Shown here piece after piece: positions 9,892 to 22,266 of a DNA stretch of 32,000 nucleotides. The position numbers and the translations under genes were made by a program. Numbering within the stretch: the first letter of the stretch is position 1; each line of letters begins with the position of its first letter. The notes beneath the pieces are model-generated. The model ran no database searches and was not told where the DNA came from. It saw only the letters and a list, made by a program, of their open reading frames with translations. Source of the stretch: Vibrio alginolyticus NBRC 15630 = ATCC 17749 (GTDB taxonomy: Bacteria; Pseudomonadota; Gammaproteobacteria; Enterobacterales; Vibrionaceae); the NCBI RefSeq assembly GCF_000354175.2, contig NC_022359.1:30001-62000 (forward strand), in the 5' to 3' direction.

Positions 9892-10231
9892 ATCTTAATA
9901 AATATCAGCAATTCGATACTAAATCATTAATCGTGAACGAATCAAATCACCCGTTTCTTCTACCCTCACATAAACCATTGTCTTTGTACTGATACTTCAT
10001 TTTTAATACTTTTCCTCATTCCTCATAAGTAAGTACCAGCTTTTTCCTAACCCGCCAAACTTAGCCAAAGGGCTAAATATCATTCTTATTTCCACTTACC
10101 TCAACAAAGCAAATTTTTACACTTATCAACGAAATTACACGTGACAAAAAACTCAGCAGCATTCCACAGAATGCTCTGTGCACTAACTACTAATAACGTT
10201 CACGACACGGCAATTGGGGAAGACACCCAAG

Positions 10232-10262: not shown

Positions 10263-11663
10263 ATGAAACAAAAAGGACTTATCCGCTCTCATGAGATGGA
10301 GTTCGCTTTTTTATATCGCATCTCAGATCTTGCTGTCATCGTCTCTTTTATGCTGCTTTTAGTGTTCAAAGACATGAATACTGCGATGGGGAAAGATTAC
10401 GTCATATTGGCTTTCGTTGGAGGCATCTCCTTTCTATTTATGGCAGAAAGCGGCAATCTGTATCGCTCTTGGCGAACCAGTTCGTTTAAAGAGCAGATGT
10501 TTATTGTCTGTGTTTCTTGGGCGGTGACTTCTGCACTTATCTTTATTGTGCTGTATTTTTCTGAAGTCCATACCTTATTTGATAACACAATTTTAGCGCT
10601 GTGGTTTGCGATTACGCCCGCTCTGCTCTTAGCATGGCGAGTAACATTCCGTACCGGATTAGCCTATTTGAGAAAAAAAGGATTCAACACTCGCACTGCG
10701 ATCATCATCGGCCAAACTCCTCACGGCATTACCCTAGCTAACGAAATTCAAAACCACACAGAACACGGTGTTCTTTTTGATGGCTTTTACGACGAACGAT
10801 CTTCCGACAGATTGCCAAATTCTGATTATCCTATTAAAGGAGCTGTTGACCACGCCCTTGAGCGAGCTAAAAAAGGGGAAGTAGATTACGTCTATATCGC
10901 GATGCCAATGCACGCAAAAGAACGCATTGCGTCACTTCTTAACCAATTCTCAGATACCACCGCAAATACGTATCTGATTCCCGACTTCTTCACTTATAAC
11001 CTTTTACATTCTCGTTGGGCGCAGATCGGCCAAGTTCAAACACTAAGTGTCTTTGATACACCTTTTGCTGGAATTTCTTCTTGGGTAAAACGGTTTGAAG
11101 ACATCTTGTTTTCGAGCATTATTTTGGTCTTAATCGCCCCTATTCTATTCGTCATTGCGATCGGCATTAAGGCAACTTCTAAAGGCCCTGTCATCTTTAA
11201 ACAACATCGGTACGGTCTTGATGGACGCAAGATTGAAGTCTGGAAGTTCCGTTCAATGACAACCATGGATCAAGGTTCCAACGTGAAACAGGCGACAAAG
11301 AACGATCCTCGTATTACGCCTTTTGGCGGATTTCTGCGTCGCACCTCTTTGGACGAACTGCCTCAATTTATCAATGTACTGCAAGGGACTATGTCTATTG
11401 TCGGCCCACGCCCTCATGCCGTGGCACACAATGAAGAATACCGTCAGATCGTGGATCGCTACATGCTACGTCACAAAGTAAAACCAGGCATTACTGGCTG
11501 GGCGCAGATTAATGGTTATCGCGGCGAAACCGACACCTTAGAAAAAATGGAAAAGAGGGTCGAGTTTGATTTGGATTACATCCACCATTGGTCGGTTTGG
11601 ATGGACATCAAAATCATCTTTATGACCGTTTTCAAAGGCTTCACTGGTGCTAACGCTTACTAA
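10263..11663 (+). CDS. Undecaprenyl-phosphate hexose-1-phosphate priming glycosyltransferase (WcaJ/VpsL/CpsA-like)
   Basis: 466 aa with N-terminal TM helices. The C-terminal bacterial sugar-transferase domain shows GPVIFKQHRYGLDGRKIEVWKFRSM...DELPQFINVLQGTMSIVGPRP. It is the first gene of the EPS operon. Confidence 0.9.
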   Translation: MKQKGLIRSHEMEFAFLYRISDLAVIVSFMLLLVFKDMNTAMGKDYVILAFVGGISFLFMAESGNLYRSWRTSSFKEQMFIVCVSWAVTSALIFIVLYFSEVHTLFDNTILALWFAITPALLLAWRVTFRTGLAYLRKKGFNTRTAIIIGQTPHGITLANEIQNHTEHGVLFDGFYDERSSDRLPNSDYPIKGAVDHALERAKKGEVDYVYIAMPMHAKERIASLLNQFSDTTANTYLIPDFFTYNLLHSRWAQIGQVQTLSVFDTPFAGISSWVKRFEDILFSSIILVLIAPILFVIAIGIKATSKGPVIFKQHRYGLDGRKIEVWKFRSMTTMDQGSNVKQATKNDPRITPFGGFLRRTSLDELPQFINVLQGTMSIVGPRPHAVAHNEEYRQIVDRYMLRHKVKPGITGWAQINGYRGETDTLEKMEKRVEFDLDYIHHWSVWMDIKIIFMTVFKGFTGANAY

Positions 11664-11673
11664 GGTTAAGATT

Positions 11674-12879
11674 ATGAAGAAACTGACAATGGCAATAGCA
11701 TTAAGTCTGTTTTCTACTGACTTGCTCGCAGAACCGATGGCTTACCAAACCGAGTCTGGTATAGAGTTGATTCCCCTCGTAAAAACTTTCTACGAGGGAG
11801 ATGACAACATCAATAAAGCGGAAAAATCCGGCAATGTAGAATCGGTCAATATTTGGGGTATAGAACCAAGCTTACTAGCACGTATAGAACGGAATCGCTA
11901 TCGCGCAGATATTTTATATAAGTTAAAAGCTGGCTTTTCATCTGACGATCGCAACGACTTCGACGACCACACTTTTCAGTTTTCCAACTTTTTCGAATTT
12001 AATCATCGTCATCGTTTAGTGGTTGATTACCGTTTTCGCGCCCAGCATGAAGTTCGAGGAGAAGATATTACCGAAGGTAATGGTAGCGCAATCGACTCAC
12101 CAATAGAGTTCAACCGTAACGATGTAAAAACCAATTATGTCTTTGGATCTAACGGTGCCAAAGGCAGACTCGAATTCGGTTTAGGCTATAGTGATAAAAC
12201 CTATCAAAACTATCGTGACGGCTTGCCTGGTCGCCCAAACGCTAAAACTAAATACAACGATTTTCGAGCTCCCAATGCACATTTGGAGTTCTATTTAAGA
12301 GCGACGCCAAGAACCTATTGGTTAGTCGGAACAAACCAAATCGTAACCGAGTATCAGCACCGAAATTCTGCGCAGCCATCGAAAGATAACAACACCAGTT
12401 TCTATTACACCGGTGCCGAATGGGAAGTCACAGGAAAAACCAAAGGCATCGCTCGACTCGGTTATCAAATCAAAGATTTTGACAGCGCTCAACGAGAGAC
12501 ATTTAAAGGCTTTAGTTGGGATATCGGCTTTGAATGGTTGCCTCAAGAACAAACTCTAGTCAGCGTGAAAACCACTCAAGCGGCGGTTAACCCCGATCAA
12601 GATGGCGATTACAACCTACAAACTCGTTACCGACTGAACCTCAAGCACGATTGGAATAGTTACCTTGCAACTCGCTTAGGTGCTGTTTATCAACAAGATG
12701 ATTACACGGGAATCTCCAGAAACGACGATCGGTACACTCTATCTTTTGGTATCGATTATCAGATCAAACGTTGGATACAGCTGCAAGCCGATTGGCAATA
12801 CCAAGATAAAAACTCTAGCCGATCGGGTTATAGCTTCGAACAAAACATTTGGACTTTAAGCGCACAGTTTTCTCTGTAA
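11674..12879 (+). CDS. Outer-membrane beta-barrel protein of the EPS export apparatus (VpsM-like position)
   Basis: I place the start at the ATG at 11674, which gives the signal peptide MKKLTMAIALSLFSTDLLA. The protein has an alternating amphipathic pattern rich in Y/G/D/N/R and ends with an aromatic-containing terminus (WTLSAQFSL). It lies between the priming transferase and the OPX gene. Confidence 0.7.
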   Translation: MKKLTMAIALSLFSTDLLAEPMAYQTESGIELIPLVKTFYEGDDNINKAEKSGNVESVNIWGIEPSLLARIERNRYRADILYKLKAGFSSDDRNDFDDHTFQFSNFFEFNHRHRLVVDYRFRAQHEVRGEDITEGNGSAIDSPIEFNRNDVKTNYVFGSNGAKGRLEFGLGYSDKTYQNYRDGLPGRPNAKTKYNDFRAPNAHLEFYLRATPRTYWLVGTNQIVTEYQHRNSAQPSKDNNTSFYYTGAEWEVTGKTKGIARLGYQIKDFDSAQRETFKGFSWDIGFEWLPQEQTLVSVKTTQAAVNPDQDGDYNLQTRYRLNLKHDWNSYLATRLGAVYQQDDYTGISRNDDRYTLSFGIDYQIKRWIQLQADWQYQDKNSSRSGYSFEQNIWTLSAQFSL

Positions 12880-12891
12880 AAAGGATTATTA

Positions 12892-13425
12892 ATGAAGGCA
12901 TTCATCAAATTCATGAGTGTAGCGTTGTTGCTATTTAGCACTTTGGTCAACGCTGACTCAAACGAGGAAGATTACTTACTCGATACTGGCGATACCATTT
13001 CCGTGCAGGTCTATGGTGAAGAAGATCTTACGATTAAAAATATTCTAATAACGTCAGATGGCTATTTTGATTACCCCTACCTTGGCCGAATCAAAGCAAT
13101 CAAAAAAACACCAAAACAACTCAAGTACGAAATAGAAACGGGCTTAAAAGGCGATTATCTCATCAATCCAAAAGTGATGGTCACCATCAATAACTTTCGT
13201 CTGTTTTACGTTAATGGCGAAGTCAGGAAACCTGGTGGATTTGAGTACCGTCCAGGGTTAACCATAGAGAAGGCCATCGCTCTAGCAGGTGGCTTGACCG
13301 ACAGAGCCTCACGCAAAGGCATTAACCTCACCAAGCATAAAACAGGTCAAACGATGGAAGGGGTCAGTATGCACCGCAACGTTGAACCTGGTGACATTGT
13401 ATTTATTGACCAGAGCTTCTTTTAA
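12892..13425 (+). CDS. Short OPX-family polysaccharide export protein (Poly_export + one SLBB domain; VpsN-like)
   Basis: 177 aa with a signal peptide ending VNA/DS and no lipobox Cys. Poly_export motifs are present (YLLDTGDTISVQVYGEEDL...DGYFDYPYLGRIKA) along with SLBB (VNGEVRKPGGFEY...AIALAGGLT). It lacks the C-terminal amphipathic helix of the roughly 380-aa Wza. Confidence 0.85.
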   Translation: MKAFIKFMSVALLLFSTLVNADSNEEDYLLDTGDTISVQVYGEEDLTIKNILITSDGYFDYPYLGRIKAIKKTPKQLKYEIETGLKGDYLINPKVMVTINNFRLFYVNGEVRKPGGFEYRPGLTIEKAIALAGGLTDRASRKGINLTKHKTGQTMEGVSMHRNVEPGDIVFIDQSFF

Positions 13426-13440
13426 GTGACAGGGAATCAA

Positions 13441-15621
13441 ATGAACGGGACTCATCCAAATAATCTCCAGATGAACAAAGTAGAACTGATTCGTTTTGGC
13501 CATCACTTCAAAGCGATTAAAAAGAATTGGCTAAGCATCGCAGCATTCACGCTTCTGTTCTCATTAACTTGTACTTGGTATATCTACTCCAAAGCATCGA
13601 TATACCAAGCTACAGCTACGCTACTCATCCAAGAGGAGCAAAAAAGCGCCCTTTCAATCGAGGAAGTATATGGCGTCGACACGACAAAAAAAGAGTACTT
13701 TCAAACGCAAATCGCCATTTTAAAATCGAATCATATTGCAGATAAGGTCATTAGAGAGCTGAACCTTACCCAATTACCTGAATTCACAAGCTCAGGGGGG
13801 TTAAATAAAAAAATCGACCAAATAAAGTCGATTCCTTTTGTTCAAGACCTACTGAATGTGGCACCAAGCCCAAAAGAAACCGCCCAGTTTTCAGAGTCCT
13901 ATTATCAGGCACTTCAAGCTTTCAGAAGTAAACTCGATATTGAGCCAGTACGTAACACCCAATTAGTCAGAATTCGCTTTCGTTCTATCGATCCTAAGCT
14001 TGCGACGACAATCGCCAACGCGGTCGGCCAAGCCTACATTGACGCAAATTTTGAAGCCAAATTGGTCGTTACACAAAATGCGGCTACTTGGTTGACAAAT
14101 AACTCTCAAAAATTGGAGGAGCGATTACGTAACTCGGAGCAAGCGCTGCAAGAATTCTTGTTAAAAGAAGGGTTGATCGATATAAACGGTATTGATGAAA
14201 TTTACGCAAATGAGCTAGAAGAACTCACTCGCAAGCTGAATATCGCTGTTAATAAGCGTATTGAAGCGCAGACGTTAATCCAACTGTTACGACGTAAATC
14301 TTCGCAAAGTTTAGACAGCTTGTTGTCAATTGATGAATTCGCTAATCAAGCGCAAATCCGCGATCTAAAATTGTCGGAAGCACAGGCAGCCAAAAATCTC
14401 TCTGAACTGGCACAGCGCTACGGACCTAAGCATGATCGAATGATTCAGGCGAAAGCACAGCTTGCTGAAATTCAATCAAGAACCCAGCAACTCATCCGGG
14501 ACATTTCCTTCAGTAAGCAACAAGACCTTCTTGCTGCAAAAGCGCAAGAGGACATGCTTCGAGCAGAACTCGATAACAAAAAGTCAGACTTCCAATCGTT
14601 AGGGTCACAAAAAGCGCGTTACGAACAGTTAAAACGCGAGGTTGAATCCAATAAGGCACTCTATGAAGCGTTCTTAAATCGTGAGAAAGAGACCAACGCC
14701 ACCAGCGACTACAAGAATGTCACGGCTCGCTTTACTGATAAAGCCATCATTCCTCTATTCCCGGTGGCACCACAACGAATCAAACTGGTACTGATTGCCA
14801 CCTTTTTTGGCTTTGCCATTGCTTGCGCTCTGGTCATCATCTTAGAAACGATGCGAGAAGTTATCCGAAGCACAACCGATGTGCAGGAAAAACTTGGTGT
14901 TACGTGTTTAGGTGTGATTCCTATGGTCAAAAAACGCAATTTGCGTAAAAACGGCGTCAGTTATACCGCGTATTTAGATGATGAAGAAAAGCTATTTAGT
15001 GAAGCTTGCCGCTCCGTCAGAACCTCGCTTCTGCTCAGATTAACCAACACGAAGCAAAAGATATTGCCCTTTACCTCTGCTATTCCAGAAGAAGGAAAAA
15101 CATCGACCAGTATCAATATGGCGGTGTCGTTTTCAAAAATGGAAAAGGTGTTGATCATCGACTGCGATTTACGTCGACCTTCCATCGCAAAGCGATTCGG
15201 TATTGCTGAATCAAGCCCTGGCTTAACGCATATCCTGACGATGGATACGCCAATCAAAGATTGTGTTACACATATAAAAGAAGCCAACTTAGATGTATTA
15301 CCGGCCGGCCTAATTCCGCCAAACCCACAGGAATTACTGGCTTCTGATCGCTTTAAAAAGTTGCTCGAACATTTTCAAAATAAGTATGACCGGATCATTA
15401 TCGATACACCACCCCTACTGTCAGTGAGTGACGCACTTATTCTTGGTCAGTATGCCAATGGTCTGATCACCGTCATTCGCTCAGAATCAACAAAATCATC
15501 ACTGGTTAACCTTGCGTTATCTAAACAAATACAACACTCAGTTCCATCTCTTGGCGTCTTAATCACACAAGCCAAGGCCAAGGAAGGAGAGACGCTTTAT
15601 GTCCAGAAATACGCCTACTAA
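13441..15621 (+). CDS. Polysaccharide co-polymerase / BY-type tyrosine autokinase (Wzc/VpsO-like)
   Basis: Contains a Wzz-type periplasmic coiled-coil region between two TM helices. The C-terminal kinase has Walker A AIPEEGKTS, Walker A' VLIIDCDLRRP and Walker B RIIIDTPP. The short Tyr tail is LYVQKYAY. I prefer the ATG at 13441, which has an AGGGA RBS, over the GTG at 13426. Confidence 0.9.
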   Translation: MNGTHPNNLQMNKVELIRFGHHFKAIKKNWLSIAAFTLLFSLTCTWYIYSKASIYQATATLLIQEEQKSALSIEEVYGVDTTKKEYFQTQIAILKSNHIADKVIRELNLTQLPEFTSSGGLNKKIDQIKSIPFVQDLLNVAPSPKETAQFSESYYQALQAFRSKLDIEPVRNTQLVRIRFRSIDPKLATTIANAVGQAYIDANFEAKLVVTQNAATWLTNNSQKLEERLRNSEQALQEFLLKEGLIDINGIDEIYANELEELTRKLNIAVNKRIEAQTLIQLLRRKSSQSLDSLLSIDEFANQAQIRDLKLSEAQAAKNLSELAQRYGPKHDRMIQAKAQLAEIQSRTQQLIRDISFSKQQDLLAAKAQEDMLRAELDNKKSDFQSLGSQKARYEQLKREVESNKALYEAFLNREKETNATSDYKNVTARFTDKAIIPLFPVAPQRIKLVLIATFFGFAIACALVIILETMREVIRSTTDVQEKLGVTCLGVIPMVKKRNLRKNGVSYTAYLDDEEKLFSEACRSVRTSLLLRLTNTKQKILPFTSAIPEEGKTSTSINMAVSFSKMEKVLIIDCDLRRPSIAKRFGIAESSPGLTHILTMDTPIKDCVTHIKEANLDVLPAGLIPPNPQELLASDRFKKLLEHFQNKYDRIIIDTPPLLSVSDALILGQYANGLITVIRSESTKSSLVNLALSKQIQHSVPSLGVLITQAKAKEGETLYVQKYAY

Positions 15622-16408
15622 CGTAAACCTATCTTGGTACCAAACGTTGAAAAGCCAAGAACAGCCGGTATTGATCTATCAAATGGGCAAAGTAGGTTCG
15701 AGTGCATTAGAGCATTCCATTCCTAACTCGATTCACTTGCACGACCTTATGACCGTCGATGCGCAAAAACAAATATCCCCCGTTAGAGCGCAATTGCATA
15801 AGCCTCAGATCAATGCGTTAAAGCGACGACTAAAGCGTATAACGATGAGCCATATGTTAAAGCGCAAGAAAAAAGTTCGAATTATCTCGCTGGTGCGTGA
15901 ACCGATCGGACGAAATGTCTCAATGTTCTTTCAAGCACTTCCTTTTTGGATGGCGGACAAATATCTAAAGGATGACAGCGCAATACGTACCGAACGACCG
16001 CAATTACTCCAAGAAGCATTTGATAAGCACATGAATCATCAATATGCGCTGCAGTGGTTTGACAACGAGATCAAACAACTAACAGGGATTGATGTGTTTA
16101 ACGAGTCTTTTAATCACGAAGTAGGCTATCAAACATACCATAACAATAACTTCTCGCTGTTGGTCATTCGAAGTGACAAGCTAACAAAGGCTAACTCCGC
16201 AGTTGAAGACTTTTTAGGTTACCCCGTGGATGTTGTTTATGAAAATCAATCAGACAACAAATGGTACTCGCCACTAATGAAAGAATTCAAAACGCAATTT
16301 CAACCTACACCCGAGTACGTTGAAGAAATGCTGAATTCTAAATTGACGAAGCACTTTTTCTCAAATGCAGAAATCACCGACCTTAAACAGCAATATCTGA
16401 CCAATTAA
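15599..16408 (+). CDS. Uncharacterised EPS-modification protein with sulfotransferase-like PAPS-binding motifs (paralog 1)
   Basis: 269 aa. The strong RBS AAGGAAGGAGAG lies upstream, and the start overlaps the wzc 3' end by 23 nt. The P-loop-like motif is VLIYQMGKVGSS (compare the 5'-PSB PKxGTT). The motif RIISLVREPIGRNVSMFFQ resembles the 3'-PB xxIYLxRNPxDxxVSxY. It is a paralog of 18692-19525. Confidence 0.55.
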   Translation: MSRNTPTNVNLSWYQTLKSQEQPVLIYQMGKVGSSALEHSIPNSIHLHDLMTVDAQKQISPVRAQLHKPQINALKRRLKRITMSHMLKRKKKVRIISLVREPIGRNVSMFFQALPFWMADKYLKDDSAIRTERPQLLQEAFDKHMNHQYALQWFDNEIKQLTGIDVFNESFNHEVGYQTYHNNNFSLLVIRSDKLTKANSAVEDFLGYPVDVVYENQSDNKWYSPLMKEFKTQFQPTPEYVEEMLNSKLTKHFFSNAEITDLKQQYLTN

Positions 16409-16410
16409 TC

Positions 16411-17463
16411 ATGAAAACCAAGATTCTACATATTATCAATGATCTTTCTCAGAACGGCGGTGCTCAGAAGTTCTTAGTCGACCTTGTTTTAGAACATAAG
16501 CCTGAATACGAAATCAAAATTTTGGTCTTGTGTGATGAAAATGATTACTTACCAATGCTATCCGCCCAAGGCATAGAGTGTTTTAACTGGCGCACATTGC
16601 CATTGAGTGAGAAATTCTCTTTGCTGCGTTGGCCGGATGTCGTTCACGGGCACCTCTACCCTTCCATTTACCTAGCGCTATTGGCGGTAGGTAAAAAACG
16701 AATCCAGACTGAGCACTGTTCTTATAACCGTCGACGTGACTATCCGCTGTTTAAGTTCATGGAATACGTCTTATATTGGGGCCACGACTTGACAGTCAGT
16801 ATTAGTGAAAAAGTACAAGATGAACTGGTGAAGTTCATGCCTCGCTACCAACACAAATATCACGTGGTGCACAATGGCGTTGATTTAAAAAGGTTTTCTA
16901 TGACGCCAAGATGCGCCAGCCACCTAATCGACAAACCAGTTATCAAGATTGGAATGGTGGGCCGACTTCACCAACATAAGGATCATGAAACGCTTATCCA
17001 AGCACTTATCCATTTACCAAGACGATACGAACTCCACCTTGCGGGAGATGGAGAAAAAAAATCGTCACTGCAAGAATTGGCAACAAAAATCAACGTCGCG
17101 CAACGTGTTCACTTTCATGGCGTAGTTTCTGACGTTCCAGCCTTTTTGAACGACATGGATATTTACGTGCAATCGTCGCACGTCGAAGGCTTTGGCTTGG
17201 CGGCGGTTGAGGCCATGGCAGCAGGCTTACCCGTATTATCATCGGACGTACCTGGTTTGGATGACGTCACCGGACGTGCCGAATATTTATTTCAAGTTGG
17301 TAACGCCACTGAACTGAGCCAAAAAGTCCTCCAGCTGTGTGAAAGTGTTGAGCGGTACGACGCTGCAAGTCAATACTCAGTCAATAGGGCCTCTCTCTAC
17401 ACCATCGATAAATTTCGTGAAGGTTACTATGGAATCTACCAGCAGCTTTGCGCCAACAAATAG
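16411..17463 (+). CDS. Glycosyltransferase family 4 (GT-B, group 1)
   Basis: 350 aa. The N-terminus is KILHIINDLSQNGGAQKF, and the C-terminal EX7E region is SSHVEGFGLAAVEAMAAGLPVLSSDVPG. Confidence 0.9.
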   Translation: MKTKILHIINDLSQNGGAQKFLVDLVLEHKPEYEIKILVLCDENDYLPMLSAQGIECFNWRTLPLSEKFSLLRWPDVVHGHLYPSIYLALLAVGKKRIQTEHCSYNRRRDYPLFKFMEYVLYWGHDLTVSISEKVQDELVKFMPRYQHKYHVVHNGVDLKRFSMTPRCASHLIDKPVIKIGMVGRLHQHKDHETLIQALIHLPRRYELHLAGDGEKKSSLQELATKINVAQRVHFHGVVSDVPAFLNDMDIYVQSSHVEGFGLAAVEAMAAGLPVLSSDVPGLDDVTGRAEYLFQVGNATELSQKVLQLCESVERYDAASQYSVNRASLYTIDKFREGYYGIYQQLCANK

Positions 17464-18676
17464 TTCCGCGCCATCGAGCCATCGCGCCTCATTGCTTGCA
17501 GCATGCCTATTAGTATTGTTCTTTATTCCAATGAAGTTTCGTGCTGGAGGAATAGCGCTAGCCCCATCTGACATCGCAAGCCTTTTGTCTATTGGTTTTA
17601 CTGCATTAGTGGTATTGGAAGGAAAAGCTGAAAAACTCATGCATCCCTGTATGGGGTTCCTCGTATTGTTCACTGGGTATGTGTTCATAAATGGTCTGCT
17701 AAATCGCGTCCCTTTAATGCCGCTAGTTATAGAAACTGTGCAATGGTTAGCGATTTTGTGCCTACTGAGCCTAATGTACGCCTATGGCGTGTTTGATGAC
17801 GAACGGGTAATGGTATATTTCACGTATCTGTTGTTTTTCATCTGTACGCTCGTTGCCTTATGGCACTTTGCTCAGGGCTATCAAAGTGGGTTTAAGTTAC
17901 TCGGGGTAAGTAAATACGGGTTCGGTGTACTGTGCTCACTACTGTACCTTTATCGAGATAAAATTCGCGCTTTCCACCTTTTGATGCTCGTAGCTTTAGT
18001 ATTACTGGTGTTGTCACAAGAAAGAAAAGCGCTACTTGGTTTTTGTCTGCTTTTCTTCTTTGACCAACTGCTCGTAAAAAACTTAATGAGAAAATCGCTC
18101 AGCGAAACGTACACGTGGACGATTTTATTAGCCTTAAGCTTTATTGTGTTTACTGCCGTCACAACCACACTCTACGTTGGGTTTGAAACGCTAGCAGACA
18201 CATTGGAAATAACCCAAGAAGACGTCTTATTTGCCAACCAAAGTGAAGCCCGCTGGGTATCGAATCTTCATAGAAAACTTTTACTTGCCAATGGGCTAGA
18301 TATTTTACTTCAACACCCAGTGTTAGGTGTCGGCGCGAAAATGTTACCCAACTTTATGATCAGTTACTTTAACTATGATGAGCTGGCGATCTACACCCAC
18401 AACTTTGTGTTAGATACCGCAATTGAATACGGATTACTTGGTATCGGTCTGCTGTTTGGTGGTTATTTTCTTTTTATTCGCTTTTGCTTCCGTAGTCTTA
18501 ATGAAAACAGAAAAAGCCTATTACTTGCGATATACGCCCTCATCATGGTGTTTTTCGTTGCGGTAAACACCACCATAATTTTAATACTCTTATTACCCGT
18601 CATGATCAGCATGAGCAACGACTCAAGGGCCATTGCTCATACTTTTCCGGTAAACCATCACCACGAATATGAATAA
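17429..18676 (+). CDS. Wzy-type polymerase / O-antigen-ligase-domain membrane protein
   Basis: Polytopic membrane protein with a Wzy_C-like loop (VSNLHRKLLLANGLDILLQHPVLGVGAKM...HNFVLDTAIEYGLLG). The start is uncertain: ATG 17429 overlaps the upstream GT by 35 nt, and ATG 17531 is the alternative. The ORF-track start at 17339 is rejected. Confidence 0.8.
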   Translation: MESTSSFAPTNSSAPSSHRASLLAACLLVLFFIPMKFRAGGIALAPSDIASLLSIGFTALVVLEGKAEKLMHPCMGFLVLFTGYVFINGLLNRVPLMPLVIETVQWLAILCLLSLMYAYGVFDDERVMVYFTYLLFFICTLVALWHFAQGYQSGFKLLGVSKYGFGVLCSLLYLYRDKIRAFHLLMLVALVLLVLSQERKALLGFCLLFFFDQLLVKNLMRKSLSETYTWTILLALSFIVFTAVTTTLYVGFETLADTLEITQEDVLFANQSEARWVSNLHRKLLLANGLDILLQHPVLGVGAKMLPNFMISYFNYDELAIYTHNFVLDTAIEYGLLGIGLLFGGYFLFIRFCFRSLNENRKSLLLAIYALIMVFFVAVNTTIILILLLPVMISMSNDSRAIAHTFPVNHHHEYE

Positions 18677-18691
18677 TCAAGGATAGGATAG

Positions 18692-19525
18692 ATGAAGTAT
18701 TCAATCTCTCGACAATTTGAAAAGAACCGAGAACTCCAAGCTGATAATTTTGTTTTAGTTTACCAAATGGGCAAAGTTGGCTCCTCATCAATTGAGCACA
18801 CGCTAGGGGAGAAAAATATCCCGAGCTATCACATCCACACCTTTGATGATCACGAAGAATTTCACATGTATCACAATAAAAAAGACGTGAGTAAATTCTT
18901 CGACTTCCGAAACCGCGCACTCTATCGCTTAGTGCTCAAGCAGCGAAAACGTATCTTACAAAAACGCGAGCAGATTAAAATCGTTACGCTGGTCCGCGAT
19001 CCAATCGCAACTGTCTTTTCTCGCTTCTTTCAAGATCTCCATTTGCAATTTATCGAAGGCAAAAAGAACGATGCAATTCACCGAGATATGGAAGTCACGT
19101 ATCAGCACCTCGAGCATTGCTTTGATAACTATATCAATCTCAACTATTTTGCGGACTGGTTCGACAACGAGTTAAAGCGTAATTTCAATATCGATGTGAT
19201 GCGCCAAGAGCTGGACAACACTCAACCTTTCTTCACATTCCAGAACGCTCAGGCCAACGTCATGCTAATCAAATGCGAACAGCTCAGTTCTCTTGATAAA
19301 GAAATCGGTGAGTTTCTTGAGTTGCAAGACTTCGTGCTGAAAAACAGCAACGAAGCGAAAAACAAGTGGTACTCCAATATCCACCAACACTTTAAGAATC
19401 ACTACGACTTCTCAAAACTGTTCTATATGTACGATCTTCCCTTGTATCGCCACGTTTATTCAGAGCAAGAGCGTGATGCTTTTAAACACAAATGGATGCA
19501 AACACCAGGGACAAAATCATCATGA
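18692..19525 (+). CDS. Uncharacterised EPS-modification protein with sulfotransferase-like PAPS-binding motifs (paralog 2)
   Basis: 277 aa. It shares these blocks with 15599-16408: FVLVYQMGKVGSS, KIVTLVRDPIATVFSRFFQ, WFDNELK..NIDV and NKWYS. Confidence 0.55.
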   Translation: MKYSISRQFEKNRELQADNFVLVYQMGKVGSSSIEHTLGEKNIPSYHIHTFDDHEEFHMYHNKKDVSKFFDFRNRALYRLVLKQRKRILQKREQIKIVTLVRDPIATVFSRFFQDLHLQFIEGKKNDAIHRDMEVTYQHLEHCFDNYINLNYFADWFDNELKRNFNIDVMRQELDNTQPFFTFQNAQANVMLIKCEQLSSLDKEIGEFLELQDFVLKNSNEAKNKWYSNIHQHFKNHYDFSKLFYMYDLPLYRHVYSEQERDAFKHKWMQTPGTKSS

Positions 19526-20553
19526 AGAAAGTGCTCCATGTTACAGAAGCATTTGGAGGTGGCGTTCAAACCGCCCTCTATAGTTATGTTCACTCATCCA
19601 GAGACGAGCCTTATCAGCATTTCTTGCTAGCCAGAGCCCGAGAAAACGACTTGACCAATGAGAACAACCACCACATTTTCGTACAGACAAAGTGGGTAGA
19701 AGGCGGCTTGCTTCAATTTATTCGCGATGCAAACCACATGATTGCATCACTTGGTCCCGACGTCGTTCATTTGCACTCGAGTAAAGCAGGATTTCTCGGC
19801 CGATTTCTAAAGCTTGGCAAGGCACGCTTGGTTTACACACCGCACTGTTATGCCTTCGAACGTGAAGATATCTCAGAGCTTGCACGCCAGATCTATAAAG
19901 CACTAGAGAAAGTAAAACTGAGCAAAATTGATGTGGTTGCAGGCTGTAGCCAACGAGAATGTGACCTAGCCATTAGCATTGGTGCGAAACGTGCCGAACT
20001 GCTCAACAACTACGTGTCTTATCAAAGTGAAGATCGTATAGAGCGAAACAAGCAAGAAGCGCTGAAGCTCGTTGTACTTGGTCGTGTCGCGCCTCAAAAA
20101 GATCCTCAGTTTCTTATCAGCACATTGCAGTTCCTTAATCGGTATGCGCTTAACCGCCCGATAGAGATCACATGGATAGGTGGCGGTGACCACGTACTCG
20201 AACAGAAATTACGCACTGAAAATGTGGATGTAACGGGCATGCTGCCTCGCGATGAGGTAGTTGAAAAGCTCAAGGGTTCAGACCTTTATCTACATACTGC
20301 AGCATGGGAAGGGATGCCGTTAACCATTCTAGAAGCATCCAAGTTACATCTTCCTATGGTTATTCGGACCATCGGCGCAACCAAAGATCTCAACTACCCG
20401 TTTTTAGCGCTCACACCTGAAGAAATGGCCAAGCAGATCGCGCATTGTGTCAATCATTATGAAGAGATTGATTTTCGCCAATATACAGCAGAATTAAACG
20501 ATGCCTTCAGTGAAGAAAAACAGCGCCTCGCACTCAATAAACTTTACGGTTAA
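19522..20553 (+). CDS. Glycosyltransferase family 4 (GT-B)
   Basis: I place the start at 19522, where it forms an ATGA overlap with the upstream stop (translational coupling). This gives MKKVLHVTEAFGGGVQTA. The C-terminal motif is AAWEGMPLTILEASKLHLPMV. Confidence 0.85.
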   Translation: MKKVLHVTEAFGGGVQTALYSYVHSSRDEPYQHFLLARARENDLTNENNHHIFVQTKWVEGGLLQFIRDANHMIASLGPDVVHLHSSKAGFLGRFLKLGKARLVYTPHCYAFEREDISELARQIYKALEKVKLSKIDVVAGCSQRECDLAISIGAKRAELLNNYVSYQSEDRIERNKQEALKLVVLGRVAPQKDPQFLISTLQFLNRYALNRPIEITWIGGGDHVLEQKLRTENVDVTGMLPRDEVVEKLKGSDLYLHTAAWEGMPLTILEASKLHLPMVIRTIGATKDLNYPFLALTPEEMAKQIAHCVNHYEEIDFRQYTAELNDAFSEEKQRLALNKLYG

Positions 20554-20561
20554 ATGCCCCT

Positions 20562-21868
20562 ATGTTTCACACTGTTCAACAAAAATTACTGTTGATGCCC
20601 AGCGGTAAAAAAAGCTTGTTATCTACTGGATTAAAAACCGCAATCACGCGTGTGTTGAGTGCGCTATTTGCTTTTTTACTGACTCTGATTGTATCGAAGA
20701 CCAGTGACGCTTCGACGGCCGGTCAATTTTTCTTTTATTCAACCTAGTCTCGCTACTCGCTATCGTTTCTCAGCTAGGTTTTGATGTCTCGTTAGTTCGT
20801 TACAATGCGATCGCTTTTAATAACAAAGAGAAGCTTGAACAAAGCCAAAACTATAAAACCGCACTTTATCGAAGTATGGCATTTTGCTTGCTCGCCATAG
20901 GCGTTTTGTTAGCAGGGTTTAATCTGTTTCCAGAACAGCTAAACCAGACTCAATCACCAATGTATGCGATTACTTTATGCTTGCTTTGCATACCTTTCTT
21001 GGTGCTTGCGCAAACCAACAGTCGGGTGCTTCAAGCATGTAGAAAAGTCGTATCATCTCTGTTTGCGTTGCAGCTTGGGGTAAGCATGTTGATGGTCATT
21101 TTTGTCTTTGCCCTAGACTATATCGGTCAGCAAAATATCAACAATCTAATGACCGCACTGCTTTTAGCGAGCATAGGTGTCGCGGTCATATCTAGTGCCA
21201 ATTGGCTTGGCTCAGATCAATATCAAACATCGGCTTTCGTACCAAACAAAAAAATGGTCTCTTCTGCCAAGCAAGTCTGGGTTGGCAGTATCTTCACGAA
21301 TGTTCTTCAATGGGGAAGCCTTGTTATTACGGGCTTTTTTATCTCAACAGCGGAACTCGGTTTGTTAGCCGCAGCCCAACGTACATCACTACTGATTGGC
21401 TTCGTGCTGATTACCATTAACTTTGTGGTCGCCCCGATGTTTGCCTCTCTCTACAAAGAGCGTCAAATGCGTAAACTGCAGAACCTGAGCCGCTTGGCGT
21501 GCCGAGCCAATGTTGGTTTAGCGATTGTACCCGTAATTATTTGCACCCTCTTCCCCGAGTTTGTAATGCAGTTTTTTGGTGAGGAGTTTCTCGCCGCGGC
21601 GCCACTATTAGTCGTCCTTTCTCTGGGGCAGTTAGTCAATGTTGCGACTGGTTCAGTAGGTTTTTTATTATTAATGAGTGGTCATGAGAGAACCATGAAA
21701 TACATTACAATTTCCTCCGGTACGGTGTCCATCTGCCTACTTGTTACGCTTTGCCAAATGTTTGGGGTGATTGGTGCAGCGTGGGCAATGGCAATTGGCA
21801 TGGCTATCCAGAATTTAGCTGCACTGTACTTTGTAAAACGTTACTTAGGCTTCTTTCCAATAGGTTAA
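20562..21868 (+). pseudogene. wzx: Wzx/MOP-family flippase interrupted by a frameshift in a T-tract (or a homopolymer sequencing error)
   Basis: The ORF 20562-20747 (61 aa, frame 3) stops at TAG. Frame 2 is open from 20708 and reads ...IFLLFNLVSLLAIVSQLGFDVSLVRYNAIAF..., continuing into the 330-aa ORF that ends at 21868. Joining the two parts gives about 436 aa, a typical Wzx length with the typical N-terminal pattern. The shift must lie within 20708-20747, which contains a T5 run (20727-20731) and a T4 run (20733-20736). Confidence 0.75.
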
Positions 21869-21870
21869 TT

Positions 21871-22266
21871 ATGGCTTTAATACTGGCACGCACGAGTTTT
21901 GTTTTAGTCCTGATGTTAACCGCTTCACTTTCTTTGTGGAAAAGCTCTGACCTACACCATACCGCTTACCTGCAAATGGAAACCTACTTAGGCGGATCGA
22001 GTACGCTTCACTTTACTTTCAGTTTATTGATCGGCTTTTTATCGGTTTTCACGTTCCCTTCTCTGGTGAGCTCGAATAAAACCGACATTTTTGGGATTCG
22101 TCTTTTGCTACTGCTGTTGGCTATCGTTTCAATGGAAGAAATAAGCCAACTTTTTATTCCAAATCGATCATTTAGTTTTGATGATCTCAGCACCAACTGG
22201 ATAGGCGTTATCTCAGGTTACTTTAGTGCCAAGTTAATTCGCCTCATCCGCGCTCGATCGTTCTAG
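21871..22266 (+). CDS. VanZ-like small membrane protein (last gene of the EPS operon)
   Basis: The ATG at 21871 lies 3 nt after the wzx stop. The protein is 131 aa with four hydrophobic segments and a VanZ-type motif (EEISQLFIPNRSFSFDDLSTNWIGVISGY). Confidence 0.7.
   Translation: MALILARTSFVLVLMLTASLSLWKSSDLHHTAYLQMETYLGGSSTLHFTFSLLIGFLSVFTFPSLVSSNKTDIFGIRLLLLLLAIVSMEEISQLFIPNRSFSFDDLSTNWIGVISGYFSAKLIRLIRARSF

Follow-up and report, generated by a model that had tools for sequence, protein, structure and literature searches.

A stretch of 32,000 nt from Vibrio alginolyticus (the window) carries an 11-gene Wzx/Wzy-type polysaccharide locus, with all genes on the same strand, downstream of malK. 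Two open reading frames (ORFs) of this locus, NK1 (15599-16408) and NK2 (18692-19525), encode members of the Pfam family PF10364 (NKWYS), whose source annotations read CpsE, hypothetical or 'putative capsular polysaccharide synthesis family protein', in keeping with a remark on their annotation in an earlier note on this DNA. Profile, motif and gene context comparisons indicate that NK1 and NK2 very probably belong to the sulfotransferase superfamily as a divergent NKWYS branch. We also consider it likely that both are active in sulfation of the exopolysaccharide (EPS) of this locus, dependent on the sulfate donor 3'-phosphoadenosine 5'-phosphosulfate (PAPS).

The NKWYS pair and its locus

NK1 and NK2 match PF10364 at 173.2 and 205.3 bits, respectively, against a gathering cut-off of 25.1 bits, and the model spans only the C-terminal half of each protein (residues ~120-257). 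The four sequence blocks that the earlier note quoted as common to the pair are all present in both ORFs: VL[IV]YQMGKVGSS at residues 24-35 of NK1 and 21-32 of NK2, then [RK]I[IV][ST]LVR[ED]PI....S.FFQ, WFDNE[IL]K...IDV and NKWYS. Their conservation in an alignment of 87 family members marks them as family-wide and not a chance resemblance. In that alignment (NK2 numbering throughout) M-G-K-V-G, His49 and Arg102 are 100% invariant, while Ser31, Pro104 (99%), Ser110 (98%), Glu160, Asn220 and Lys225 are at least 95% conserved; the two Ser reach 98-99% and His47 80%. The family as a whole has 6,375 representatives (E<=1e-3, 50% identity) in Proteobacteria, Bacillota, Cyanobacteria and others. BLASTP aligns NK1 with NK2 over 257 residues at E 8e-31, with 28% of positions identical and 53% positive. 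The description of the two as paralogs thus holds as family-level homology and fails as recent duplication: a tandem origin is ruled out by the 28% identity and by the closer relation of NK1 to non-Vibrio members (32-49% identity) than to the NK2 group (27-28%). Neither protein has a transmembrane segment or a signal-like N-terminus (maximum 19-residue Kyte-Doolittle value, KD19, of 0.70 for NK1). Lacking a hydrophobic segment, both are expected to be cytoplasmic, a predicted location that fits a PAPS-using enzyme.

Larger architectures occur elsewhere in the family (P0241-P0251, P0242, P0317, P0335, P0353, P0307 and P0352): many members carry NKWYS twice in tandem and are 500-580 aa long, and others are very large fusions, reaching 2,484 aa, with glycosyltransferase (GT) family GT2 and GT4, FkbM methyltransferase, TPR, MptE-like and Sulfotransfer_3 domains.

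Each NKWYS gene directly precedes a GT4 gene, as had been claimed, and the stop and start coordinates show close coupling within both pairs. The NK1 stop codon (16406-16408) lies 2 nt before the start of GT4a at 16411, and the NK2 stop overlaps the probable start of GT4b in an ATGA at 19522-19525. Pfam also bears out the gene content given in the earlier note, namely one priming transferase, two GT4 enzymes and no acetyl- or pyruvyl-transferase. The features of the locus are collected in Table 1.

Table 1. Genes of the polysaccharide locus and sequence motifs of NK1 and NK2 (positions in the window)
Feature	Position	Strand	Basis or remark
Priming undecaprenyl-phosphate glucose phosphotransferase, WcaJ-type (CpsA/BrpA)	10263..11663	+	TIGR03023 WcaJ_sugtrans 568 bits, cut-off 411; Bac_transf
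Outer-membrane beta-barrel (CpsB)	11647..12879	+	BBP2_2 E 4e-23
Short Wza-like polysaccharide export protein (CpsC)	12892..13425	+	NCBIfam export-protein matches; Poly_export/SLBB in ortholog
Wzc-type co-polymerase/tyrosine autokinase (CpsD)	13426..15621	+	Wzz, GNVR, AAA_31; TIGR01007 above cut-off
NK1, CpsE ortholog, 269 aa, NKWYS family; putative PAPS-dependent polysaccharide sulfotransferase, accessory member of the locus	15599..16408	+	PF10364 E 3.6e-51
NK1 loop MGKVGSSA (K31), like the 5'-phosphosulfate-binding (PSB) loop	15683..15706	+	aligns with KSGTT of canonical sulfotransferases
NK1 H-L-H motif (H46, H48), candidate catalytic base	15734..15742	+	aligns with E-x-H of 3-OST-5 and bacterial homologs
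NK1 motif VRIISLVREPIGRNVSMFFQ (R100, S108), like the 3'-phosphate-binding (3'-PB) motif	15875..15934	+	Ser at Arg+8, the spacing of RNPxDxxxS
GT4a glycosyltransferase (CpsF/BrpF ortholog)	16411..17463	+	Glycos_transf_1 E 2.9e-34, Glyco_transf_4
Wzy-type polymerase (CpsG ortholog)	17339..18676; true start probably downstream of 17339	+	Wzy_C E 2.7e-14; V. parahaemolyticus ortholog 410 aa
NK2, CpsH/BrpH ortholog, 277 aa, NKWYS family; putative PAPS-dependent polysaccharide sulfotransferase, core member of the GT4a-Wzy-NK2-GT4b module	18692..19525	+	PF10364 E 4.3e-61
NK2 PSB-like loop MGKVGSSS (K28)	18767..18790	+	family alignment, hhalign
NK2 H-I-H motif (H47, H49)	18830..18838	+	directly after predicted strand 45-48
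NK2 3'-PB-like motif IKIVTLVRDPIATVFSRFFQ (R102, S110)	18974..19033	+	aligned to KIIYIVRNPKDTAVSMF of SULT7A1 (5x2b) and KLLIIVREPTTRAISDY of 3-OST-5 (3bd9)
GT4b glycosyltransferase (CpsI/BrpI ortholog)	19522..20553, start probable	+	Glyco_trans_4_4, Glyco_trans_1_4; V. parahaemolyticus ortholog 343 aa
Wzx-type flippase (CpsJ), frameshifted	20562..21868	+	split into 61-aa and 330-aa ORFs
VanZ-like membrane protein (CpsK)	21871..22266	+	VanZ E 7.9e-9; ortholog 133 aa

Gene order and both flanks are the same as in V. parahaemolyticus cpsA-K (L029), which corresponds to VPA1403-VPA1413 (PMC7829505), and gene order and the upstream mal flank are the same as in the V. vulnificus brp locus (L028). 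V. parahaemolyticus CpsE and CpsH and V. vulnificus BrpH are direct orthologs: NK1 is 74% identical to a V. parahaemolyticus 'capsular biosynthesis protein', and NK2 is 88% identical to its V. parahaemolyticus ortholog and 73% identical to P0013, which occupies the brpH position in V. vulnificus. A 90% identical NK1 homolog in Vibrio sp. JCM 19053 was named CpsE by its source. The window belongs to the Harveyi/alginolyticus group of Vibrio, and at the nucleotide level it is 92.4-92.7% identical to V. diabolicus-like contigs over 8.7-25.1 kb.

The order of priming transferase, outer-membrane barrel, Wza, Wzc, (NK1), GT4, (Wzy), NK2, GT4, Wzx and VanZ beside malK recurs in more than ten Harveyi-clade loci. 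Within it GT4a-Wzy-NK2-GT4b forms a conserved core, as synteny over 21 genome loci shows; the core occurs in Vibrio, Enterovibrio and Amphritea. Most Harveyi-clade species and V. maerlii have NK1, which V. rotiferianus, V. mytili, V. vulnificus, Enterovibrio and Amphritea lack. NK2 is the conserved core member and NK1 an accessory one, which would contribute a further modification for part of the Harveyi clade; the doubly sulfated polymer proposed in the earlier note is speculation, NK1 being accessory. Unlike the present locus, V. vulnificus brp has neither NK1 nor a Wzy gene: brpF (GT4) is followed by a 218 bp gap (L028 9783-10001) and then brpH, so that its polymerase is encoded elsewhere or its polymer is assembled differently. 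Downstream of brp lie a cabABC-like gene set and two VpsT-like regulators. In V. maerlii (L011 13595-14617) the GT4a ortholog has relocated to the end of the locus, after VanZ, and NK1 is directly followed by Wzy.

Some gene models in this region call for care. ORF starts were called mechanically, and for Wzy (GTG at 17339) and VanZ (TTG at 21751) they fall more than 100 nt inside the gene before; ortholog lengths of 410 and 133 aa imply later true starts, for VanZ the ATG at 21871. The wzx gene (cpsJ homolog) carries a -1 frameshift in a T-run at ~20733-20736, with T4 here and T5 in the V. diabolicus-like contigs L009, L031 and L032, and one added T restores a 435-aa ORF that is 93% identical to that of L009. 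The frameshift is either a strain-specific pseudogene, a slippage site or a homopolymer sequencing error. The L009 draft of V. diabolicus has single-base indels of its own, at ~4996 and 10114-10184, that break wzc and the NK2 homolog. These are probably assembly errors, and the L009 gene models should not be taken at face value.

Resemblance to PAPS-dependent sulfotransferases

Two of the shared blocks had been likened to the PAPS-binding signatures of sulfotransferases, and this reading is borne out by profile comparisons, in which K-x-G-S-[ST], R-x-P-x5-S and H-x-H of the NKWYS family lie in register with the motifs of heparan sulfate (HS)-type sulfotransferases. The first has the 5'-PSB arrangement of strand, K-x-G-[ST]-[ST] and helix, written here as G-K-V-G-S and then [ST][ST]; the second has the 3'-PB arrangement of strand, R-x-P and a helix with Ser at Arg+8 (R102, P104 and S110). 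AlphaFold2 models (predicted local distance difference test 94 for NK2 and 88 for NK1) place the motifs in a strand-loop-helix, at the end of a second strand that leads into H-x-H, and in a strand-Arg-helix. In NK2 these elements are strand 21-24, a loop and helix 32-40, then strand 45-48, and finally strand 95-101 with helix 104-114.

Searched against PDB sequences, the NKWYS family profile finds sulfotransferases in eight of its nine matches at E<=0.06, among them SULT7A1 (5x2b, E 0.014) and the HS 3-O-sulfotransferases 3-OST-5 (E 0.028) and 3-OST-3 (E 0.05); the ninth match is OspA (E 0.045). At the 3'-PB motif the alignment sets KIITLVRDPIARNIS opposite KIIYIVRNPKDTAVS and KLLIIVREPTTRAIS, which brings in RNPKDTAVS of 5x2b and REPTTRAIS of 3bd9, and Y-H-I-H of NKWYS falls on E-I-H-F-F-D of 3-OST-5. 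Single-sequence phmmer searches of NK1 and NK2 against PDB gave chance matches only (I-CreI, synaptotagmin), and no NCBIfam model matches either protein.

A second line of comparison used A2, an alignment of 48 canonical bacterial sulfotransferases seeded with the Sulfotransfer_1 gene that adjoins a Gracilibacillus NKWYS gene. A2 itself matches the bacterial sulfotransferase 3rnl (5e-102), NDST (5e-27) and the 3-OSTs (1e-18 to 1e-23) in PDB. Aligned with A2 by hhalign, the NKWYS family gives E 2.3e-4 over 170 columns with the three motifs in register, pairing KVGSSS with KSGTTS (5'-PSB), H-x-H with E-P-H-F-F, and LVRDPIARnIS with LRNPVDRAYS (3'-PB). The E-x-H of the bacterial sulfotransferase P0121 also aligns with H47/H49, which are candidates for the catalytic base. 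In reciprocal hidden Markov model comparisons, 147 of 257 NKWYS proteins and 109 of 120 canonical sulfotransferases score higher than all of the 600-1,285 shuffled controls.

The Pfam Sulfotransfer profiles that the earlier note had proposed as a check give a divided answer, since several NKWYS members pass a gathering score and the two window proteins fall below it. For NK2 the scan touches Sulfotransfer_1 (E 0.0033) and Sulfotransfer_3 (E 0.05) and for NK1 Sulfotransfer_1 (E 0.015), all sub-cut-off and with no other enzyme family touched. Among the 87 aligned members, 27 match Sulfotransfer_1 (best 5.8e-7) and 18 match Sulfotransfer_2 (best 1.5e-5) at E<=0.01, and no other enzyme family recurs. 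N-terminal halves above the gathering score are those of P0048 (29.6 bits), P0076 (25.0) and P0115 (25.8) for Sulfotransfer_1 and of P0105 (25.7), P0242 (23.2) and P0307 (24.6) for Sulfotransfer_2. P0108, which looked like a fusion of a canonical sulfotransferase with NKWYS, was set aside, as its N-terminal part covers only the C-terminal end of Sulfotransfer_1 and may be a gene-calling fusion.

HS-type carbohydrate sulfotransferases (the NDST domain, HS 3-OST-1/3/5 and bacterial 3rnl; Sulfotransfer_1 and Sulfotransfer_3) are the best hhalign partner of the family and among its best PDB profile matches. Both groups have a strand, K-x-G-[ST]-[ST] and a helix; [E/H]-x-H after a second strand; and a strand, R-x-P and a helix with Ser at +8. 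They are also alike in acting on sugars and in occurring in polysaccharide loci, with the NKWYS activity a predicted one. The similarity is nonetheless marginal (E 1e-2 to 1e-4; Foldseek template modelling score, TM, <=0.34). NKWYS has His where the HS-type enzymes have their catalytic Glu, and no counterpart of its C-terminal half (WFDxE...N-x4-K-W-Y-S) was detected in them. Cytosolic SULTs (1A/1C/1E/7A; Sulfotransfer_1), in which His is the catalytic base, are the top Foldseek matches of NK2 in PDB (1cjm, 2ad1, 3bfx and 5x2b), though weak and not statistically significant (E 0.046-0.2, TM <=0.34). These are eukaryotic enzymes with small-molecule acceptors, unlike what is predicted for NKWYS, and their C-terminal GxxGxxK motif was not recognised in NKWYS proteins. 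Most likely, NK1 (CpsE) and NK2 (CpsH/BrpH) are sulfotransferases that are soluble, cytoplasmic and dependent on PAPS, within a divergent and uncharacterised NKWYS branch of the superfamily.

Sulfur genes and the PAPS requirement

Genes for sulfate activation accompany NKWYS genes in several lineages. In six Enterovibrio loci (at least five species) the interval from wzc to GT4a encodes a DHH/DHHA1 phosphoesterase along with CysD and CysN, and the one from GT4b to wzx a sulfate-type transporter (CitMHS/Na_sulph_symp/TrkA_C); NK2 is the sole sulfotransferase candidate in these loci. In Modicisalibacter xianhensis (L108) a transporter, adenosine 5'-phosphosulfate (APS) kinase, CysQ, CysD and CysN are interleaved with a priming transferase, GTs, Wzx and NKWYS, with no other sulfotransferase. 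The Thalassobacillus devorans locus (L030), which encodes ATP sulfurylase, a transporter, APS kinase and CysQ, contains no sulfotransferase-like gene other than NKWYS, whereas that of Gracilibacillus kekensis (L024) combines two canonical sulfotransferases with CysD, a CysN-APS kinase, a transporter and CysQ. Two metagenomic loci carry CysQ, CysD, CysNC and a transporter (L057) or APS kinase and DHH (L087). Canonical sulfotransferases also adjoin NKWYS genes in Methyloligella, Thalassotalea, Flocculibacter and Pseudoalteromonas (L021, L025, L109 and L110) and are fused to NKWYS in P0307 and P0352. No sulfur-pathway or sulfotransferase genes were seen in L022/23, L026 and L027. A metagenome survey found such genes in 5 of 24 long loci, a count that is a lower bound, few canonical sulfotransferase queries having been used, and no statistical proof.

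Several features of these loci are of interest in their own right. The Enterovibrio GT4a-Wzy-NK2-GT4b module sits exactly between cysN and the transporter gene, as if inserted into a cysDN-transporter-(cysC) operon. The DHH/DHHA1 phosphoesterase lies directly upstream of cysD-cysN (L014 4244-5215; also L012, L015, L016 and L019), and a homolog (E 7e-107) directly follows APS kinase on the NKWYS-bearing contig L087 (328-2016); it is a candidate phosphatase for 3'-phosphoadenosine 5'-phosphate (pAp) in place of CysQ. A gene of the beta-CASP metallo-beta-lactamase fold stands beside NKWYS in the unrelated EPS loci of Thalassotalea (L025 10832-12253) and Modicisalibacter (L108 6504-7988). A locus type of Alteromonadales (L025, L109 and L110) comprises a secretin, a Slr4-family protein, Sulfotransfer_2, Wzx, GT4, an optional Sulfotransfer_1 and NKWYS, which suggests a multiply sulfated polymer exported through the secretin.

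KpsS, LpsS and NodH of rhizobia are examples of canonical sulfotransferases from sulfated bacterial polysaccharide loci. In the capsular polysaccharide (CPS) locus of Vibrio sp. KMM 8419 the joint presence of PAPS genes and sulfotransferase genes has been described as a hallmark of sulfated polysaccharide synthesis (PMC11641403), and the same hallmark is seen in the NKWYS loci of Enterovibrio, Modicisalibacter, Thalassobacillus and Gracilibacillus. The two Vibrio systems differ in other respects: KMM 8419 has a capsule pathway of the ABC-transporter kind, which lies on chromosome 1 and includes annotated sulfotransferases (PMC11641403), whereas the present locus is a Wzx/Wzy biofilm EPS pathway in a chromosome-2-type mal region with unannotated candidate enzymes.

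Published genetics connect PAPS with the orthologous loci. V. vulnificus delta-cysD and delta-cysC mutants, which cannot make PAPS, form neither rugose colonies nor pellicles even with raised cyclic di-GMP (c-di-GMP) and wild-type-level PbrpA expression, while a delta-cysH strain, in which PAPS builds up, is unaffected in phenotype (Chodur et al. 2018, PMC6113621). The regulator BrpT has binding sites upstream of both brpA and brpH and activates brp, through promoters at these two genes, as well as cysDNC, and in V. parahaemolyticus the cps-dependent pellicle is abolished by cysD and cysC lesions (PMC6113621). Chodur et al. mention neither EPS sulfation nor BrpH (PMC6113621). A sulfated EPS product would explain why the cps and brp phenotypes need PAPS, and a PAPS-consuming sulfotransferase encoded by brpH/cpsH is a simpler account of the expression-independent part of the phenotype. 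In our literature search no paper tied NKWYS/PF10364, cps or brp to sulfotransferases, and no function was found assigned to CpsE, CpsH or BrpH.

A proposed model for EPS sulfation and its alternatives

Our results suggest a molecular model for how the two NKWYS enzymes would act during EPS assembly. WcaJ-like CpsA loads Glc-1-P onto undecaprenyl phosphate, and the two GT4 enzymes would extend the chain on the cytoplasmic side of the membrane. There each NKWYS enzyme, coupled in translation to its own GT4, would move sulfate from PAPS to a sugar hydroxyl of the repeat unit linked to undecaprenyl pyrophosphate. In this reaction the GKVGS[ST] loop would hold the 5'-phosphosulfate through its invariant Lys (and Ser), and the 3'-phosphate would be held by the likewise invariant Arg102 together with Ser110, eight residues on; His47 or His49 of H-x-H would serve as catalytic base. 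Wzx would flip the unit and Wzy polymerise it, with Wzc, Wza and the outer-membrane barrel responsible for export. The product would be a sulfated biofilm EPS with a presumed calcium-binding role. We infer the donor, the acceptor, the order of events and the chemistry from the observed homology, motif conservation, synteny and gene context.

Several observations weigh against this model. The window proteins score 15.1 and 17.3 bits for Sulfotransfer_1 against a gathering score of 22, the hhalign probability for NKWYS and A2 is just 44.5%, and no Foldseek match of NK1 or NK2 reaches E<=0.001 or a TM-score above 0.34. For NK1 the top Foldseek matches are zeta-toxin P-loop kinases, followed by the sulfotransferase 3rnl at E 0.37. 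An older analysis of V. parahaemolyticus CPS reportedly gave four neutral or amino sugars with sulfate not reported, and our literature search found no chemical evidence for sulfate in Cps or Brp EPS. With its frameshifted wzx, the present strain may not make the polymer. The Enterovibrio loci have cysDN and, in the 20 kb examined, no cysC. Nearby sulfur genes are also missing from roughly three quarters of the metagenomic NKWYS loci that are long; this is what one would expect if PAPS from housekeeping synthesis is usually enough, as it has to be in the present window. Finally, Chodur et al. read PAPS as a second messenger, with an unidentified matrix component needing PAPS (PMC6113621).

That last proposal bears on the acceptor. 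NK1 and NK2 could be genuine sulfotransferases that modify something other than the EPS repeat unit, such as another envelope glycan, a small molecule or a matrix protein like CabA, leaving the EPS unsulfated. Acceptor specificity cannot be read from sequence, and the component on which PAPS was proposed to act is one besides the Brp polysaccharide (PMC6113621). We nevertheless regard this as unlikely. The genes are fixed in the GT4a-Wzy-NK2-GT4b core of Vibrio, Enterovibrio and Amphritea and translationally coupled to GTs, other members are fused to GT2 and GT4 domains, and NKWYS genes appear again inside Wzx/Wzy EPS loci of distant phyla. CabA, moreover, is secreted, whereas NKWYS proteins are predicted to be cytoplasmic.

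It is also quite unlikely that the pair are inactive proteins of the sulfotransferase fold that bind PAPS or its product PAP and, in the role of sensors or scaffolds, tie EPS assembly to the sulfur status. PAPS levels do affect brp expression and c-di-GMP in V. vulnificus, and such a role would accord with the published second messenger model (PMC6113621); the catalytic residues of NK1 and NK2 are sequence-based candidates. However, a fully invariant His and a second, largely conserved one stand at the catalytic E/H position of HS sulfotransferases, and c-di-GMP bypasses the effect on PbrpA expression but not that on rugosity, a pattern that fits a substrate role. The loci with dedicated genes for PAPS synthesis, sulfate import and pAp removal likewise point to consumption at high flux rather than sensing.

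Sulfotransferases and P-loop kinases have a common fold, and weak fold matches therefore cannot separate the two. The Foldseek matches of NK1 to zeta toxins (6epi E 0.14, 3q8x E 0.35, 1gvn E 1.0), with PezT, zeta toxin and PPK2 also among those of NK2, could accordingly be taken to indicate ATP-dependent phosphotransferases akin to zeta toxin or UNAG kinase, which would phosphorylate a repeat-unit sugar or nucleotide sugar and yield a phosphorylated EPS. We judge this very improbable. A Walker A kinase is ruled out on the motif, there being no G-x4-G-K-[ST]: the invariant Y-Q-M-G-K-V-G-S-S, in which Lys is followed by Val, is not Walker A and fits the sulfotransferase K-x-G-T-T. In addition, R-x-P-x5-S aligns with the 3'-PB motif, Sulfotransfer_1 and Sulfotransfer_2 recur in the 87 members while no kinase Pfam family does, and neighbouring genes serve sulfate activation and pAp removal rather than phosphate chemistry. 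Every zeta-toxin match is non-significant, with TM <=0.28. Least credible of all, and barely worth entertaining, is a coincidental motif likeness in non-enzymatic 'capsule synthesis' accessory proteins: database names say just 'putative capsular polysaccharide synthesis protein', and the window proteins are sub-threshold in Pfam with non-significant fold matches, but three motifs lie in register, other members pass the Pfam gathering score, the cross-profile comparisons score well clear of their shuffled controls, and PAPS genes accompany the family in at least four independent lineages.

On balance, and with less assurance than for sulfation of the EPS as such, we favour a joint account of family and phenotype. 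NKWYS would be an unrecognised family of PAPS-dependent polysaccharide sulfotransferases, and Cps and Brp would be sulfated by CpsE, CpsH and BrpH. The need for PAPS would then be at least partly a need for substrate, and with BrpT inducing EPS genes, sulfotransferase and PAPS supply together, a calcium-binding sulfated matrix would result. Short of proof, the data indicate that the sulfotransferase family is probably a new one and that the biofilm EPS is probably sulfated. If this is true, a large family known merely as a 'putative capsular polysaccharide synthesis protein' gains a function, and sulfated bacterial polysaccharides become predictable from genomes without an annotated canonical sulfotransferase. 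Biotechnology has uses for bacterial EPS that are sulfated and resemble glycosaminoglycans, and there is demand for new polysaccharide sulfotransferases that are regiospecific. For the Vibrio biofilm, the model would provide a testable biochemical account of the PAPS need for rugosity that is independent of brp transcription, and would link calcium, the matrix protein CabA and a polyanionic EPS.

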